Of a stretch of 64,000 nucleotides of DNA, positions 54,394 through 64,000 are shown in pieces. A program made the position numbers and the translations under genes. The notes beneath the pieces were generated by a model that had not been told where the DNA came from, made no database searches, and saw nothing but the letters and a program-made list of their open reading frames with translations. Source of the stretch: Ignavibacteriota bacterium (lineage in GTDB: Bacteria; Bacteroidota; Ignavibacteria; UBA10030); assembly GCA_963701295.1 (NCBI GenBank), contig OY969585.1, positions 1,952,001 to 2,016,000 of the forward strand, read 5' to 3'. Each line of letters starts with the position of its first letter. Within the stretch, counting starts at the first letter, position 1.

Positions 54394-54431
54394 CGACCTC
54401 GAGCAGATATACTCGAGGTCGGTTTGTTTTT
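54394..54431 (+). terminator. Intrinsic terminator after engB
   Basis: CGACCTCGAG-N8-CTCGAGGTCG followed by GTTTGTTTTT. Confidence 0.75.
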
Positions 54432-54779: not shown

Positions 54780-54808
54780 TTGACAAACAAAGCAACAAAA
54801 TATATATT
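54780..54808 (+). promoter_or_regulatory. Near-consensus sigma70-like promoter of the TBDR-PorV operon
   Basis: TTGACA-17 nt-TATATT; same -10 hexamer as the tRNA and str promoters. Confidence 0.7.
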
Positions 54809-54981
54809 CTTGCAAACAAAAAGTCGCACATACTCAAGAAGGAGGTGACGCGATTCCTTGCATGAAGAAATCTCACTGTATGTGAGGAAGCATTTTTTTG
54901 TTACCAATCCCATGTTTTTTTCCGCGACAGATATAAATTAATTATTCTGTGCCGTCTTATAATCTATAAAATGGAGGAAAT

Positions 54982-55725
54982 ATGAAACTTTCCATAACAT
55001 GGTGGCTGATTGTTTTATCGGGCATAATGTTGATTTTCTATGTGGGGGGTTGCGTTAATGTGAACAATCCGGATATCAGCACTGTTGATTATCGTTCTTT
55101 AGTAAAATTTGTTAATCTCTCAAAAATTGGCACAAGTGTGAGTGTAAAAGTGGATGGAAGTACCGTTGTTAATTCTTTAACCAATACTTCTTATTCGGCA
55201 TATGAGGATTTAGCATCTGGCACTCGGTTTTTTTCCTTTACGTATGCTGGCACTACTCCTGCAATTCAAGATACTTTTCATTATTCCCTTGCACCAAATT
55301 ACAAGTTTACATATTTCTTTGTGTCTGATCCTACAGCCGGAGATTCAACTCGTACCTACTGTTTAGTACCTGAAAGACAAACATATAGTGGTACAGTAGC
55401 ATCTATTCCAAACAATATTTTAGTACGTTTCATAAATTTATCAAATGATACTTCCGCTTCAGTAAGCGGCGGTGTACAGTTCCATCTTATTTACAGTACA
55501 ATTGACACAACAACCGATTTATTGGTTTTTAAGGGAGTCAGTCCCTATTATCAAGTCGCTCTATCTAACTCAGCTCAATATCTTGTTATGAGTGCGGATA
55601 CTTCGATACATACACCGCTCATTCCGTCGACATCCGTGTCTACAACACAAGGACGTTTTTCAGTTGTATTGTATGGATTCCAAGGTACAAACACATTGCA
55701 AACACAAGTTTATAAAGAAGATTAA
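54982..55725 (+). CDS. Lipoprotein with tandem DUF4397-like domains
   Basis: Lipobox-like VGGC at Cys24; repeated VKFVNLS / VRFINLS; VDG....L.....S.Y..L..G pattern. Confidence 0.7.
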   Translation: MKLSITWWLIVLSGIMLIFYVGGCVNVNNPDISTVDYRSLVKFVNLSKIGTSVSVKVDGSTVVNSLTNTSYSAYEDLASGTRFFSFTYAGTTPAIQDTFHYSLAPNYKFTYFFVSDPTAGDSTRTYCLVPERQTYSGTVASIPNNILVRFINLSNDTSASVSGGVQFHLIYSTIDTTTDLLVFKGVSPYYQVALSNSAQYLVMSADTSIHTPLIPSTSVSTTQGRFSVVLYGFQGTNTLQTQVYKED

Positions 55726-55741
55726 GGTAAAGGAGGATCGT

Positions 55742-58726
55742 ATGATGAAACAATACGCTGTAATTTTCTTCTTACTCTTATTGAGTTTCTCTATAGCGAG
55801 TGCTCAATATGGAAAAATAACAGGAGTGATAACCGATCAAGAATCAAAAGAGCCATTGGTTGGTGCGAATGTTGTTGTTGAAGGGACATCATTAGGAGCA
55901 GCAACGGACTTAAATGGGAGTTATGTGATTCTTAATATTGCTGCAGGAACATACACAGTTAAGGCTTCGTACATAGGCTACCAGACAATCACAATAACGA
56001 ATGTAAAAGTTCTTGCTGATCTCACGAGAGAGCTTAATATTAAATTATCGAATACGACTGTTCAGATCACTGCGATAACTATTGTTGCTGAAAGGCCTTT
56101 AATTGAAAAAAGTGCAACAAATGCTGTAAGAATTCAAGCAGCGGAAGATATTGAAAAGTTACCAGTGAGAGGTGTTCAAGGTTACTTCACATTAGAACCA
56201 GGTGTTGTTTTACAAAATGGCACTGTTTATATGCGTGGTAGTCGTAACGACGAAGTTGGCTTTTCTATTGAAGGCGCTGATGTAAGAGATGTTGTTGGAA
56301 CAACTGTGCGAAATAATGCTAATGGTAATTTAATAACAACAATTCCTGAAGCTCTGGAAGAAGTTACTGTTCAAGCTGGTGGGTATGGTGCCGAGTACGG
56401 AGGTGGAAGTGCAGGAATTGTAACTCAAACATTTAAGACAGCGGGTTCTGGCACCAAGGTTACACTTCAAGCAGAAACAGATAATTTTGGTAATTACCCC
56501 GGCAAAAAATTCCTAGGAACTTATTCTTACGGCTATTCAGATTATGTGATGACTCTCAGCACACCCATCACATCAGATAATATTAAACTCTTCGCAGCTT
56601 TGGAAAGTAATTTTCAGCGTGATCAGAATATTTGGTTCTGGTCAGGCGGCAATTTTGGATATCTCTATGACAATGGGGGAAGTGGAGGACATGCGGGTGA
56701 TTCAGTGCTCATGAACTGGAACAACGGTAACATCCCCGGGAGAATGAATAAACGATATACGGGTAATGGTTCATTGCTCTTCGACTTCAAACCTCTTGAA
56801 GTAAGATTTTCAGGCGCATACACATGGTCAAGAAATGAAAATAATAATTTTATCGCAGATATTTTTGATTTAGATCGTGCACCAACAGGAGACAATGATA
56901 ATTTACTCCTTAATGGTAAAGCGACTTATTTCCTTACAAATAGTACATTTGTTGAGGTTAATCTCAATTATGCGGATGTTCGGAATAAAACGTACGATCA
57001 GACATTTGGTGATGATCTCATTTCATATCTGGATAGCGTTGCAGCGGCACAACATGGATGGCAGTTTGCAAGTCTAACTCAAGATCCGCTCCCTTACAAC
57101 ATCAATGGATTTGAATTCAATAGGCCTGGAGCACCGATCGTTGGCAGTAACAATTCGTTACCGGGCTTTTTATATCAAAAGAATAAGAATACGTCGATGG
57201 GAGGATCTTTAGCAATATCATCACAAATGAATAAACATGAATTGAAAGTAGGTGGATCATTCAACTACTGGTCAGTCTCCCATTACGATGTTGATCCAGG
57301 ACTTATCTTCGCTTCGACTATAAACAATCCTGATATCGTAAGAGATCCTACGGCTTATGCAATGATGATGCGGACAGTGAATCATGTTAACAATTACGGA
57401 TTCGATGAATTCGGAAATCCTATTACAAGTGGATCAGACGGTCCCAAGCATCCATATTTTGCTGCCGCTTATATACAGGATAAAGTTGAATTAACTGATA
57501 TGATTGTAAATGCTGGTCTGCGTTTCGATGCAATTAATTTGGATGGATGGGCTTTTCCCAATGTAAGTGATCTCGTTGTTAATCAAAGTAATTTCACCAT
57601 ATCAAATTTAAGTAAAACGCCAGTCTATACATACGTTGAACCTCGAGTAGGATTTTCTTTCCCGGCATCAGATAAAACGGTTTTCCATTTGCAGTATGGA
57701 GAATTTGTTCAAGCGCCGCCATTATATAGTCTCTATCGAGGCGAAGCGTTTACAGTATATATTTTACAAAATGGGCATTATTTTGCGAACCCTGTAGGAT
57801 ATAATATACAGCCAGAAAAGACAACTCAGTATGAGATTGGTTTTTCACAGCAATTTAGTGATGTATCCGCTATTGATATTACTGGTTTCTACAAGAATAT
57901 TGCAGGTCAATTACAGACTTCAGTTTATAACATGCCAGCGTCACTTCTCCTTCCGGGGAATGTGTATTATGCATACTCGAACGGTGATTTTCAAAACGTG
58001 CTTGGCGTTGAGATAAGTCTGCATCTCAGAAGAATTGAACGATTTCAAGCAGATTTAAATTACACGCTGCAAGATTCACGCGGAACGAACTCCTACGCGA
58101 ATGGAACTATTGCTTTATTAAATACAGGTAGTACTCCTCCAAGTATGGTTGTTCCTTTGGAGTACGCAGAAACGCATCGCGGCTCTATCTCGTTAGATTA
58201 TCGGTGGGGAAAGAACGATGGCGGGCCAATTCTTGAGCAATTGGGATTCAATCTTCTGTTCACATTTAATTCCGGCCATCCATATACGTTGTCAACCGGC
58301 AGCGGCGGACAACAAGGACCGGATTTAGGAGCCATCTTGAATGATGCAGATGCACGAACAAGATTTCCTGTAGAACCGATAAACAACTCAGTAACTCCGT
58401 GGGCGTATGAATTGGATTTTCGAATTGATAAATCATTTTCGATAGGATCTTTTAATATTAATATTTATGCTTACGTTCAAAATTTGCTTAACACACAAAA
58501 TGTTACGAATGTGTACTATAGAACGGGTAATGCCTACGACGACGGATGGCTAAGTGATCCATTAGCAAGTGGAAAAACGGTTAGCAATCCTTCCTATGGA
58601 CAGACGTATTCAGGACTCTATCAGGTTATCAACCTTCAAAACAATCAAAATCAATTCCGACAAAATGGTTTTGTCAACTTTGGCACGCCGCGTCAGATAC
58701 GTATTGGTGCAAAGTTAGAATTGTAA
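55742..58726 (+). CDS. TonB-dependent receptor with N-terminal carboxypeptidase-regulatory-like domain
   Basis: AAGGAGG RBS, signal peptide; GKITG.ITD..SKEPL.GANV...G; plug MRGSR.DEV...IEG and GGYGAEYG; AAYIQDK, NAGLRFD, PEKT.QYE.G; C-terminal PRQIRIGAKLEL. Confidence 0.92.
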   Translation: MMKQYAVIFFLLLLSFSIASAQYGKITGVITDQESKEPLVGANVVVEGTSLGAATDLNGSYVILNIAAGTYTVKASYIGYQTITITNVKVLADLTRELNIKLSNTTVQITAITIVAERPLIEKSATNAVRIQAAEDIEKLPVRGVQGYFTLEPGVVLQNGTVYMRGSRNDEVGFSIEGADVRDVVGTTVRNNANGNLITTIPEALEEVTVQAGGYGAEYGGGSAGIVTQTFKTAGSGTKVTLQAETDNFGNYPGKKFLGTYSYGYSDYVMTLSTPITSDNIKLFAALESNFQRDQNIWFWSGGNFGYLYDNGGSGGHAGDSVLMNWNNGNIPGRMNKRYTGNGSLLFDFKPLEVRFSGAYTWSRNENNNFIADIFDLDRAPTGDNDNLLLNGKATYFLTNSTFVEVNLNYADVRNKTYDQTFGDDLISYLDSVAAAQHGWQFASLTQDPLPYNINGFEFNRPGAPIVGSNNSLPGFLYQKNKNTSMGGSLAISSQMNKHELKVGGSFNYWSVSHYDVDPGLIFASTINNPDIVRDPTAYAMMMRTVNHVNNYGFDEFGNPITSGSDGPKHPYFAAAYIQDKVELTDMIVNAGLRFDAINLDGWAFPNVSDLVVNQSNFTISNLSKTPVYTYVEPRVGFSFPASDKTVFHLQYGEFVQAPPLYSLYRGEAFTVYILQNGHYFANPVGYNIQPEKTTQYEIGFSQQFSDVSAIDITGFYKNIAGQLQTSVYNMPASLLLPGNVYYAYSNGDFQNVLGVEISLHLRRIERFQADLNYTLQDSRGTNSYANGTIALLNTGSTPPSMVVPLEYAETHRGSISLDYRWGKNDGGPILEQLGFNLLFTFNSGHPYTLSTGSGGQQGPDLGAILNDADARTRFPVEPINNSVTPWAYELDFRIDKSFSIGSFNINIYAYVQNLLNTQNVTNVYYRTGNAYDDGWLSDPLASGKTVSNPSYGQTYSGLYQVINLQNNQNQFRQNGFVNFGTPRQIRIGAKLEL

Positions 58727-58760
58727 ATAATTCATTCTGAACGGTCAGGAGATATCTACT

Positions 58761-61700
58761 ATGAAATATAAAAAGCTGGTGTTAATGATCTTTCTAGCTC
58801 TGTTGTTCGTCTCATTTTCCTCTCCTGGAAAAGATAATTCGAACAATTCAGCACATAAATTGTTTAAGAACACTGCTGGAGTCTCAAAAGCATTAATGAA
58901 TGCAAATAATGTGACAAGCTGGATAAGGCCTAATGGGTTCTTTAATTGGGATGTTGCACAATCATGGAATGGCGAATATCCAAAACTTTCAGGAGTCGGA
59001 ACAATTTTTGCCGAAGGTATTGTTTTTGGAGGCTTTTCTAATGATGGACTTTATACGAGTTCCCTGCGTGTCACAGGAAATACTTATTTCAATGGAATGC
59101 AGGCAGGAAGTATTTTGACTGCAAACGGCAATACAACAGGCGCAGAAGATCCATCCTCGTCAGCTGTTAATAGAGTATGGGGAGTACGGCCTGATGTTTC
59201 ACCATTTACTGCAACAAGTGCATATCCAAATTTAACGAATGATGCAGCAACATTTTTTCAAGTTTCTCCAGGTTCCGTGACTTCTTCTCAGATTCAAACT
59301 ATTGTCAATCAATATATTGCAGATTGGAATGAATGGCCAGCAAGTGCTCAGAATCCTAAGGGCGCTCCTTGGTACGTTGATACGGTGCAAGTTGTCAGAA
59401 ACGACAACAATTTTTCTGCATCAAATCCACACCATATTCCTGGTATGCCAGGGGCAACAAAAACCATATGGTTTGTCTGCAATGACCTAAATCCATCAGT
59501 ATCTGAAACTTTTGGCGGTTCTCCACCGATGGGTATTGAACAGCAAATGATGCTCTGGTCATATGCATCATCGACCCCATTAAACGATATGATTTTTAAA
59601 CAAGTAAAATTGATTTATAAGGGAAATCCCCATTCACCAGCGAATGCTGAAATAGATAGTATGTATATTGTTCAATGGGCGGATGGCGACGATGGAGATG
59701 CCGGGGATGATTACGCAGGATGCGATTCAACATTAGGCCTCGGATATCAATATAATTCCACTGCAACAGATGCAAAATACGCAGCTGTGGGTTTAGCTGC
59801 TCCTGCAGTTGGTTACGCCATTTTAAACGGCACCGCATATAAAACCGGCAATTTTAATGACAGCGCTGTTGTGAATTTCCAATGGCGGCACGGCTATAAA
59901 TATTGGAGTGCTAACCCGTTAAGTGCGTACGATTATTTTGCAGCTGGTTCACCGATAAGTGATCCGGATAACGGAACATATTCAGGAACGCAGCAATGGT
60001 ATAATCTTATGCGGGGTGATTTACCGCGACCGGCATATCCCGAGGCAACTCCGTATTATACTTCATCTACATATGCGAGCGCACATGGAATAGTAACGAA
60101 ATATTGCCCGAATGGTGATCCAACAACTGGCACCGGCTGGATAGATGGATTAGATATTGCAGCAGGTGACCGCCGAATGGTGAATGTTCATGGGCCATTC
60201 ACACTCAAATTACACGACACGGCTGAGGTTGTTATTGCACTCATTGATGCGATGGGTGCAGATAATATTGGTAGCGTGAAATTGTTAAGAAATAACAGCT
60301 CATTTGCAATACGAGCATTTCAAAATCTTTTTCAATTACCTGCTCCACCGCCTCCTCCATCGGTAAGCGTTTCCGCTCTGGACGCGGAAATCATACTGAA
60401 TTGGGGTGGACCTCAAAGTGCAAACCTGGAATCAAGTTTTAATAGGGGTTACGCTTTCGAAGGGTACAACATTTACCAGTTTGCAACACCAAGCTCAAAA
60501 ATTGAAGATGCTACAACAGTAAAAATAGCAACGTATGATATTGTTGATGGCGTTAAAGTAATTCTCGGCCCTGCTATAGACCCAGCGTCTGGGGCAGCTA
60601 TCACGAAAGTTTATGAGAATGGTAATGATACAGGATTGAAAAGGGTCTTTGACCTTACAAAAGATTATTTACGACAACGTCCTCTGGTAAATGGTCAGGC
60701 ATATTACTTTGCTGTTACGGCATATACGTATGACCCATACTGGAATGTTGATACATCGCAATATTATTCGCCAGGTTCGCCAACGTTGGAGAGTAATCCA
60801 CTTATCCTTGTAATAACACCGCATTCAGTAAATCCAGGTACGCGGCTAACAGCTCAAGCTGGAAGTGCTGTCCAAGTTACACATACTGTTGTGGACTCGA
60901 CAAAACCATCAAGTGATGGAAGTGCTACTGTAATAGTCGAACAACCCGATAAGTTAACAGGCGACAACTACATTGTTAAATTCGACAGTACAGGAGCTAA
61001 TTGGTTTGTTGTCGACGCCACTCAAAATGTGACAGTGGCAACAGGTACTAATGAATCTGGAGACAGTAATTATCCTATTGTTGATGGAATACAGGTTATT
61101 ATTCAGGGACCACAACCCGGAATGAAAGAATGGACAATCCCTTCAGGAACTCGGCGATTTTCTCCAGTTGGAGGGTGGGGAGGTCTAGGGCTTGAAGGAT
61201 TTAGGTACTGCTGCTGACCCATTTGCGTATGACGAAACTGCCGGTACTATAGGTATGGCAGGTCATTTTGCATTTGGCGGTGTAGGAACAACATTGACAA
61301 CTGCACAGCAGTATCATACGGTGCTTTTAAAATTAGCAGCTGTAGACCATACAAACCTATGGGATCCAAAATCTGCACCTACAGATGCTAATTTTTCACT
61401 TGGCTATAGATGGGTGCGGCATGCATCTGCTGCAGCGGATACTATTCCTGCGTTTATGCCATGGATTATTAATCAAGGGAGTGGATATCCGTATCAAGAT
61501 TTTAATTATTCTGTACCTTTCTCAGCTTGGGATATGTCTACTAATCCACCGACTCGCCTTGTCGTGGGAATGTTTGAAAATAATGATCCTGGTGCATCTG
61601 TTGATGGAAGGTATTGGCCACCATTAACAACTGGAGATAATTCGGTAAACCGTGAATTTTGCTTTATCTTTAGTAAGCCATATTCGACGACACCGGATCC

Positions 61701-62214
61701 TACATTTGAAAATAATCTTTCTAATAATTCATCGATGCCTCTTATGTGGGTCATGACTTGCAATAGGCGTGCTGATGTGGACTGGGTTGCTGGTGATCAA
61801 TTTGAAATTATCGCAGCAAATGTGAACGGACCGAATGATATTTTCAAATTTAAAGTACCATCGGTTATGTACTATGCTGATTCAGCAAAGTTAGACGTTG
61901 ATAAGATCAATGTATTCCCCAATCCATATCTTGGTGTACAAGCACGAGAAACGAGTCGTCTTAATAAATTTGTGACGTTTAATCATCTGCCTGCAAGTGC
62001 GACAATTCGAATATTTAGTTTGTCAGGCGTGCCGGTCAAAACTATCACAAAAAATGATGCAACACAGTTTGCGACATGGAATCTTTTGAATGACCACAAT
62101 TTGCCTGTAGCAAGTGGAATCTACATTATCTATGTTGATATGCCAACACTTGGGAAATCGAAAATCCTCAAGTTAGCGCTCGTTCAAGAAGAACAAGTTT
62201 TACCGAACTATTAA
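58761..62214 (+). CDS. Large secreted protein (~1150 aa) with T9SS-like C-terminal domain; split into 58761-61217 and 61192-62214 by an apparent +1 frameshift near 61204
   Basis: Signal peptide; DGDDGDAGDD; PAPPPPP linker; FN3-like FEGYNIY..NGQAYYFAVTAY; C-terminal INVFPNPY...IRIFSLSG..VKTI...W...VASGIYI. Deleting one G in ttt agg tac gives F-S-T-A-A-D and joins the frames. Confidence 0.75.
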
Positions 62215-62263
62215 GATGACCATGATTTTATTATGACTCCAACTAAATTCTAAGGAGCGAATT

Positions 62264-63301
62264 ATGAAAAGAAAAGTTTTATTAATATTAACATTATCAT
62301 TTCTGGTGCTGAGCATGTTTACCATTTCTGCTTTTGCACAGAGCAAAGCAGGAACATCAGCAGCTCCAGAATTGCTTATCCCGCTTGGCGCACCAGAAGT
62401 GTCAATGTCGGGTGCTGTTATTTCTTTTGTTTCCGGACCAAGTGCAATTCCATGGAATCCAGCTGGTCTCGATGTAGGCAATGTCAGTGCAAGTGCATTA
62501 TTTTCTCATCGATCATACATCGGAGACATCGGCATTAATTACGCTGCAGTAGCAACCAGGATATCTTCATTTGGCACATTAGGATTAACATTGCGTGCAT
62601 TTAATATCGGCCAAATCTCTGTAACAACAGAGGATCAACCAGATGGAACTGGAGCTTTTATCAATCCGACTTTCTTTACGCTCGGGCTCACATATTCAAA
62701 ACAGCTTACCGATCATGTAAGTATTGGTGCTACAATGAATATAGTGAATGAAAGCTTCTCAAATGTCAGTGCGTCTGGTATTGCATTTGATGCTGGTATT
62801 CAGTATAGAAATCTTGGAGACGTTGCAGGATTGAGCTTGGGTGTTTGTGTAAACAATATAGGAACATCTATGCAATTTAGTGGATCAGATTTGTGGTTAC
62901 CAGCAACAGCAACAGATCTGTCACGAGGTATAACATACTACAAGGTAGAAGCAGCGAGTGCACAGATGCCTTCTATTATCCAAATTGGCTTAGGGTATGA
63001 AATGAAACTCGATGAAAACACCGGATTGAAGCTCGGGATCGCGTATGAAAATAACAACTATGGTATTGATGAATATAGACTTGGCGCTGAGTTAGGACTT
63101 GTGAAATCCTTGTTCATACGAGGCGGTTATATCTATAGTACTGATCCTGCTGGAGCTAAATCGATTTTCCAAAATTATTCATTTGGATTAGGTGTTGATT
63201 TGAAGGAGTACCTTGGAGTTCCAATAAGTATTGATTATGCGTACATACCAGTTCAATACTTCAGTGCGAACAGTATTTTTGATATTCATATTAATTTTTA
63301 G
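62264..63301 (+). CDS. PorV/PorQ-family (UPF0164, FadL-like) outer-membrane beta-barrel
   Basis: Signal peptide, KAGT.AA..L.IP.GA...MSGA, WNPAGL, TT..QPDGTG, AFDAG.QY, IDYAY, C-terminal Phe. Confidence 0.85.
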   Translation: MKRKVLLILTLSFLVLSMFTISAFAQSKAGTSAAPELLIPLGAPEVSMSGAVISFVSGPSAIPWNPAGLDVGNVSASALFSHRSYIGDIGINYAAVATRISSFGTLGLTLRAFNIGQISVTTEDQPDGTGAFINPTFFTLGLTYSKQLTDHVSIGATMNIVNESFSNVSASGIAFDAGIQYRNLGDVAGLSLGVCVNNIGTSMQFSGSDLWLPATATDLSRGITYYKVEAASAQMPSIIQIGLGYEMKLDENTGLKLGIAYENNNYGIDEYRLGAELGLVKSLFIRGGYIYSTDPAGAKSIFQNYSFGLGVDLKEYLGVPISIDYAYIPVQYFSANSIFDIHINF

Positions 63302-63324
63302 TTGGAATAAATATATAATTTACC

Positions 63325-63361
63325 AAAACCGTCAATGGAGAGGACATTGGCGGTTTTTTTT
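63325..63361 (+). terminator. Intrinsic terminator closing the TBDR-PorV operon
   Basis: AAAACCGTCAATG-N7-CATTGGCGGTTTT followed by a T-run. Confidence 0.85.
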
Positions 63362-63440: not shown

Positions 63441-64000
63441 ATGAAAAACATTTTACTTCATATATATTGTGTACTGGCAATACTATTATTAAGCATTAAA
63501 GGACAATCACAAACTATTCCTCCCCAAAATCCGTTTTTAATAAATGTGTTGATTAATAAGTTCTGGCAAAATGATTCTACTGCTTATTTGGAAATTTCAA
63601 CTGCGTGTTATCCCAATCAAGTAACTCTGTATAATGATTCGGCAGGACATCACAAAAGTATTGAGTTTTGGATCAAAATTAAAAATAATTCTACTGAAAA
63701 GATTGTTCAGGCAGATCGGTTTCGTGTACCAATTACTATGCAGGATTCTTCGAATGAATTATCTTCAAAATCCATAGTAAATAAATTTACTTATAAACTG
63801 AGTTCTGGTTCGTATACATTAAGTGTTCATGGCTTTGACAACGGAAAGCCAACCCATCGGGATAGCGCAATTATTCAAGTCGAAATACCTCGTCGCCCGA
63901 GAACTGTCGCATTGAGTGACATCGAACTTGCCAGTAATATTACCGAATCGAAGGATACAAAGGATTATTTTTACAAGAATTCTCTTTGTGTAATTCCAAA
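63441..64000 (+). CDS. Exported protein, probably the N-terminus of a GWxTD-domain protein (runs off the window; absent from the ORF track)
   Basis: Hand translation open to the window edge: MKNILLHIYCVLAILLLS...AYLEI...GSYTLSV...LSDIELASNI...FYKNSLCVIP. The GWxTD motif itself is not in the window. Confidence 0.6.
   Translation, partial: MKNILLHIYCVLAILLLSIKGQSQTIPPQNPFLINVLINKFWQNDSTAYLEISTACYPNQVTLYNDSAGHHKSIEFWIKIKNNSTEKIVQADRFRVPITMQDSSNELSSKSIVNKFTYKLSSGSYTLSVHGFDNGKPTHRDSAIIQVEIPRRPRTVALSDIELASNITESKDTKDYFYKNSLCVIP

Follow-up and report, generated by a model that had tools for sequence, protein, structure and literature searches.

A receptor, a large protein and a barrel encoded side by side in an operon of an Ignavibacteriota bacterium form a real, widespread and apparently undescribed module, in which known parts stand in a new arrangement. 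We lean toward reading the three core genes as a surface capture-and-import module, where a barrel-tethered capture protein would serve a TonB-dependent receptor. A full-text literature search, judged by titles and the starts of abstracts and including few subscription papers, returned no description of this triad arrangement, and supplementary tables of proteomic or comparative papers may list triad genes. The operon lies in the window, that is, the whole stretch of 64,000 nucleotides analyzed here, and consists of the following elements:

54780-54808, + strand: sigma-70-type promoter, TTGACA-17-TATATT, 11/12 match, hexamers invariant in aligned regions
54836-54870, + strand: conserved 5′ leader motif with a AAGAAGGAGG core, directly behind the promoter
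54982-55725, + strand: lipoprotein gene, 247 aa, Pfam PF14344 (DUF4397)
55742-58726, + strand: TonB-dependent receptor-type gene, 994 aa, PF13715 and PF07715
58761-62214, + strand: large-protein gene, ~1150 aa if read through, two frames in the assembly
61204-61205, + strand: single additional G breaking the large gene into two frames, from alignment with relatives
62264-63301, + strand: PorV/PorQ-family barrel gene, 345 aa, NF033709
63325-63357, + strand: intrinsic terminator, -17.4 kcal/mol, z -4.6

The first-pass annotation had described a self-contained operon of four tightly spaced, co-oriented genes with ribosome-binding sites, opening with a near-consensus promoter and closing with a clear terminator. 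Both ends of that description hold, as does the spacing: the gaps between the lipoprotein, receptor, large-protein and barrel genes measure 16, 34 and 49 nt, with purine-rich ribosome-binding sites. A second hairpin (54394-54421) ends the upstream GTPase gene, and the unit is thus bounded on both sides by strong hairpins (z -4.6 and z -3.6). Two parts of the description do not stand, namely that the large gene is one open frame and that the lipoprotein is a constant member. The promoter is the top site among 36, but shuffled sequence gives 33.7 sites, so that the match alone is not beyond chance, though both hexamers are invariant in 7/7 aligned upstream regions (the window and six relatives picked for matching it). 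Equally invariant across these seven regions, including those that lack the lipoprotein gene, is the AAGAAGGAGG-core leader motif, behind which no conserved start codon occurs. No Rfam family came close to its gathering score on the leader, which folds no better than shuffled sequence (z -1.2), and one leader motif is frequent enough to be expected by chance, the genome having 35 matches to it at one mismatch. Family-profile search agreed with the earlier annotation in matching no SusD, CAZyme or regulator family among the four genes. Beyond the terminator begins a 457-aa gene (window 63441-64000, continuing to C1:2016814) whose orthologue in the related genome G011 has a GWxTD domain (TIGR04514); such a gene lies 3′ of the triad in several relatives.

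Inspection of the large gene reveals a reading frame of 818 aa (58761-61217) followed by a second frame ending at 62214, with the extra G present relative to 5/5 relatives' loci whose alignment spans the site. The G011 orthologue, 87% identical, reads as one uninterrupted frame of 1147 aa and has the same genes in the same order around it, and both halves of the split gene are 85-87% identical to this intact relative. Because the large gene is intact in close relatives, the extra G is probably an assembly error. The SprA gene and three other of the 30 triad genes in this single-contig genome are split in the same manner, which likewise points to assembly indels. It is rather unlikely that the module is as described and the large gene of this one genome a recent pseudogene: the extra G is indeed in the assembly, but the preserved identity of both halves argues against it, as does the like splitting of triad genes and of SprA, which other tailed proteins presumably need. 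One DNA read run contained 5% of the words, its contigs were mostly less than 95% alike, and no listed piece bridges the frameshift; a protein-based frameshift count across the genome covered 40 bins and refound the 61204-61205 site only.

The triad recurs far beyond the window. Ten copies of receptor, large protein and barrel are found in the window's genome alone, whose nearest named relatives are Ignavibacteria and Kryptonia. Of 31 related genomes, 25 have a match to the large protein; the other six, four of them at least 96% complete, gave none for the window-clade protein. A scan of species genomes detected at least 594 relatives of the large protein and returned 79 loci that span, by record titles, Ignavibacteria, Kryptonia, Calditrichota, KSB1, Marinimicrobia, Latescibacterota, Zixibacteria, Chlorobi and Bacteroidota. 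Complete triads, in which the large-protein gene immediately follows that of the receptor and immediately precedes that of the barrel, make up 59 of the 63 loci whose flanks reach at least 600 bases on either side, and the four incomplete cases are two large-protein arrays and two receptor-protein pairs without an adjacent barrel. A profile of the triad tail matched 87/151 genomes across the phylum, and among 20 regions chosen solely by such matches, taken from 20 genomes that lie outside the order of the window, 18 contained the full triad. Conservation of the triad in other genomes, on which the earlier annotation had made its reading depend, is therefore borne out. Some triad-type large proteins lie in arrays and lack a barrel of their own (L046, L053, L138, L139), and a large protein with a barrel occurs without an adjacent receptor in L103 and L104. 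Tandem arrays of two to four family large proteins were observed in L046, L048, L053, L062, L138, L139 and L101; some of these have triad-type tails without a barrel of their own, and those of L101 have ordinary tails. At E 1e-30 the large-protein family comprises 1,359 representative clusters (50% identity clusters); with over 1,300 clusters at that identity, it is a family as yet unnamed.

Congruence of the three gene trees had been proposed as a check, and receptor, tail and barrel distances do correlate, at 0.81-0.86 over 59 triads (49 intact loci of the 79 and the ten paralogues of the window's genome). Among the ten paralogues alone, Spearman correlations reach 0.80-0.94, with 2/2000 permutations as high, and the receptor and barrel trees agree at 0.94 across deep paralogues. 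These correlations indicate block duplication, not binding: congruent trees are no proof of contact, because co-duplication alone yields them. A domain-level mirror tree appeared to tie the tail to the barrel over the receptor (partial correlation 0.46 vs 0.16), but its control failed. Two domains of the receptor itself, the plug and the N-terminal extension, showed the same bias (+0.17 to +0.28, vs +0.27 to +0.31 for the tail), and for that reason we rejected the test as evidence.

Gene context differs among the copies. Eight of the nine other triads, in 5/6 other gene clusters, adjoin sugar genes (60 neighbours scanned), including GH3/13/16/30/31/59/77/94, CBM6/9, sugar transporters, a sugar kinase and LacI, and these paralogues likely take up glycans. 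The window copy and one other lack sugar context. Flanks of the window clade, 91 proteins in all, include one glycoside-hydrolase match and five PIG-L deacetylase-like proteins and are otherwise housekeeping. The window copy itself occupies a fixed housekeeping position behind a ribosomal gene cluster with no regulator gene adjoining, and this position, between the ribosomal cluster/GTPase and the GWxTD gene, is shared by 4/4 closest genus relatives, the window included. SusD and the triad coexist in 5/31 genomes. The genus genomes without the window-clade protein (G003, G008, G010, G013) have one weak SusD match each, vs 1/12 of those with the protein, and 0-1 weak triad-tail matches. An exchange of SusD for the triad within the genus is a hint only, as the groups were noticed post hoc and consist of kin that are not independent.

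The receptor comprises an N-terminal extension, a plug and a predicted barrel. Its plug matches PF07715 at 32 bits (cut-off 23.9), and a long region without a Pfam barrel match follows. A SusC identity is ruled out, with 64.8 bits against the SusC/RagA model TIGR04056 falling far below its cut-off of 368.25. The lipoprotein matches PF14344 at 33.1 bits (cut-off 30.6) and carries a lipobox-like GGC. Its gene lies directly 5′ of the receptor in 12/12 other loci of the window's subclade and in 5/33 outside it, four loci being too short to judge, and the DUF4397 lipoprotein is thus an optional, mostly subclade-specific extra. Behind each of the five triads of one paralogue clade (C1:2284744, 2511583, 2869796, 3100675 and 3110075) stands a gene for a lipoprotein-like protein of 418-456 aa; these genes, two of which have a TIG domain match, are distinct from the DUF4397 gene of the window.

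The window barrel scores 150 bits against the PorV/PorQ family model NF033709 (cut-off 90) and matches Flavobacterium johnsoniae PorV (6h3i_F) at E 3e-4. It falls under every orthologue cut-off, with 63.5/250 for PorV and 73.5/220 for PorQ (models NF033710 and NF033711) and 58.4/325 for PorV2, and all nine sister barrels likewise pass the family model and fail the orthologue models. Other genes of the same genome pass the PorV and PorQ orthologue models (260.5 and 267.1), which excludes the window barrel as the housekeeping PorV or PorQ. A quick tree of 65 rows places it amid 50 triad barrels (support 91), apart from housekeeping PorV, PorQ and FadL. Profiles and tree together assign it as a PorV/PorQ-family paralogue additional to the housekeeping pair, and the concern that it might group with FadL transporters or housekeeping PorV is settled in favor of neither. 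PorV and FadL do belong to one fold family, and the barrel could on that ground be a FadL-type transporter of hydrophobic molecules unrelated to the secretion tail. We consider this highly improbable: the genome's FadL is encoded elsewhere (PF03349, 226 bits, C1:2156418), and the barrel of the window clears the cut-off of the PorV/PorQ family, groups with the triad barrels and is not among the genome's five PF03349 matches.

The large protein is organized as a signal peptide, a beta-supersandwich (~residues 40-522), an FN3-like domain, which we take to be such from its motifs, two further beta domains and a C-terminal secretion domain. An N-terminal hydrophobic helix is visible in both sequence and model. 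Structure models reached pLDDT 90 for the intact G011 protein and pLDDT 96 for the window's own N module. In structure, the N module matches the supersandwiches found at the N-terminus of GH15/94/116/65 enzymes (best Z 18.9, rmsd 3.0, 234/487 residues aligned), and its model includes the linker helix of these enzymes. These matches cover model residues 31-522 only, corresponding to the N-terminal part of the target enzymes. The rest of the model is beta, and identity as a GH15, GH94, GH116 or GH65 enzyme was rejected because the catalytic helical barrel is absent. The N-terminal domain is therefore predicted to be a glycoside-hydrolase-type beta-supersandwich without the catalytic barrel. A shared supersandwich fold shows no function, the same fold being catalytic in mutarotases and some lyases. 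Between the three paralogue clades, the N modules show only weak likeness (HHalign 32% and 22%). Proteins whose tail is ordinary contain the module too, in some cases within arrays that include neither receptor nor barrel in the fetched stretch (e.g. L101), and the module hence does not need the receptor. Longer fused forms comprise a CHRD fusion and two long tailed proteins; Pfam detected no catalytic partner fused to the N module, which is weak evidence. Neither half of the large protein matched a Pfam family, phmmer found no match in the PDB, and Atlas neighbours were unnamed clusters only.

At its C-terminus the large protein has an atypical type A-like secretion domain, which scores 23.4 bits against TIGR04183 for the window tail (cut-off 23) and 21.3 for the full G011 protein. 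The signal peptide together with a C-terminal Ig-like sorting domain marks it as a predicted type IX cargo. The nearest solved tail is that of PorZ (Z 12.4, rmsd 2.0, 90 residues, 29% identity), and the tail profile matches PorZ at E 0.004 and PorU at 0.2. A loop insertion behind the first conserved motif is common to the ten triad tails, which a quick tree (88 columns) places together on one side of a branch, opposite the 104 other tails of the genome (SH-aLRT 96). Within the window's clade the tail is the most conserved domain, with 54% mean identity compared with 24-46% elsewhere in the protein, and has a conserved extension of about nine residues. As a secretion signal the tail belongs to a class of its own, nearest to the tail that PorZ keeps uncleaved.

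The genome encodes the type IX translocon on which such a tail would depend: SprA, frame-split in the assembly, is present, as the first-pass annotation had asked to see confirmed, along with PorU, PorV and PorQ, 106 type A tail matches and seven TonB_C matches. GldM and GldL had no match in this genome, nor in any positive-control genome, and GldK had a match under the cut-off. This combination may represent a type IX system without the known motor. The SprA break (C1:3470871-3477363, L013) separates frames of ~2037 and 313 aa at a frameshift near C1:3471660 and is probably an assembly indel. A second PorU-like gene, with a 1796-aa frame under the cut-off, lies in C1:2912000-2924000 (L122), and its tail groups with that of PorU. 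At C1:2668671-2672085 (L118), two divergent PorV/PorQ-family barrels stand behind a propeller-like protein whose tail is atypical, and with no receptor present this is another possible private cargo-barrel set. No SusC passed the TIGR04056 cut-off in this 99% complete genome, and SusD (PF07980) had zero matches where the control, B. thetaiotaomicron, was matched. The triad likely stands in for the SusC/SusD pair, which is unmatched here.

In the capture-and-import reading, the large protein would pass through SprA, the type IX translocon, and be collected by the co-encoded barrel, with its tail kept uncleaved and docked as that of PorZ is on PorQ. The likeness to PorZ is no proof of tail retention, because PMC11285876 describes no known features that distinguish cleaved from uncleaved tails. 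Held beside the receptor in this way, the large protein might present its N module, likely a ligand-binding one, for capture of a substrate on behalf of the TonB receptor, as SusD does for SusC, and the receptor would then import that substrate.

In an unlikely alternative, the large protein is anchored on its own barrel yet works independently of the receptor, be it as an adhesin, as a substrate concentrator or as an enzyme, in which case linkage would reflect co-regulation only. Reuse of the N module in ordinary cargos is in keeping with such independence, as are L103 and L104 with their missing receptors. An enzymatic role gains from invariant acidic and arginine residues in the N module (D304, the D308 region and D466-R467-R468, G011 numbering) and from supersandwich folds that are themselves catalytic in mutarotases, PL4 and GH174 (Z 11-14). 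Independent action is harder to reconcile with the order receptor-protein-barrel, which is kept in 59/63 and 18/20 loci while the flanks vary, and with the agreement of receptor and barrel trees (0.94), which would go beyond that usual for loose co-regulation.

A role in envelope biogenesis or secretion, not import, is quite improbable but concerns at least the window clade, where a TonB-coupled barrel might energize or assist the handling of surface proteins in a motorless type IX system. PorF, a protein of the type IX system, resembles TonB receptors. The missing detection of GldK/L/M beside SprA and 106 tails, tempered by the absence of a control match for GldM/GldL, would suit this role, and so would the fixed housekeeping position in the closest genus relatives. 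Known precedents lend it further plausibility, since BamG/H/M show a similar barrel-plus-canopy layout (PMC12611786) and PorF is listed as an outer-membrane protein of the system with unknown partners (PMC12704123). Absence of the window-clade protein from 6/31 related genomes weighs against biogenesis, as a protein missing there is not obviously essential, and the nine paralogues, eight of them in sugar loci, fit substrate-specific import better.

Capture and import thus remain the reading that we prefer, and it would link type IX secretion directly to TonB uptake. Taken with the genome background, it allows a bolder proposal that we regard as possible though short of probable: many FCB bacteria outside Bacteroidia may use a second, undescribed form of lidded TonB import, built from a type IX-secreted lid, a private PorV-like barrel and a dedicated tail class, as the main polysaccharide uptake of SusCD-poor lineages with motorless type IX. 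If so, the dedicated tail class would give each lid its own barrel and receptor, and the lineages meant would include Ignavibacteria, Calditrichota and Marinimicrobia. Carbohydrate-enzyme gene clusters of Ignavibacteriales are reported in PMC10576277 scarcely to carry susCD, so polymer capture there needs explaining, and a multi-copy, conserved unit of receptor, surface protein and barrel is a concrete candidate. It has also been hypothesized that cognate PorV-like barrels shield tails from cleavage (PMC10202324), which ten diverged tail-barrel pairs in one genome make directly testable.

Several known systems share parts of this layout. In Porphyromonas gingivalis, PorQ tethers PorZ via an uncleaved tail (PMC10202324, PMC12704123, PMC10947112), and the triad resembles the PorZ-PorQ and PorU-PorV pairs in placing a barrel of the PorV/PorQ family next to a protein whose tail comes closest to that of PorZ. 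It differs in that its barrel fails the PorV/PorQ orthologue cut-offs, with true orthologues elsewhere in the genome, in that its cargo is neither a sortase nor an LPS carrier, and in having a TonB receptor and ten copies. Type B cargos with PorP/SprF shuttles (SprB-SprF, Fjoh_3952-Fjoh_3951) offer a second likeness, as PMC12618676 describes a shuttle gene directly 3′ of the cargo, one barrel per cargo and some orphan cargos. According to that paper, cognate shuttles serve type B tails and type A tails are all said to use PorV. In contrast, the triad tail is type A-like (TIGR04183 at cut-off), its barrel belongs to the PorV/PorQ family, and its constant third gene is a TonB receptor; the word 'TonB' is absent from the main text of PMC12618676. 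The BamA-BamG-BamH/M set of Flavobacterium johnsoniae is similar in geometry, with BamG, a 14-stranded FadL-family barrel, anchoring a surface canopy beside BamA and thereby holding a surface protein over a larger barrel (PMC12611786). That set works in protein biogenesis and anchors lipoproteins (PMC12611786), whereas the window barrel has no BamG match by profile search. SusC/SusD (RagA/RagB) of Bacteroidia shares with the triad a TonB receptor with an N-terminal extension, a surface-protein gene directly after it, and many paralogues, mostly in sugar loci. The triad departs from this pair in a receptor far under the SusC cut-off, in the presence of a third gene for a barrel, and in a partner that is predicted to be an all-beta protein with a secretion tail instead of a lipid-anchored SusD.
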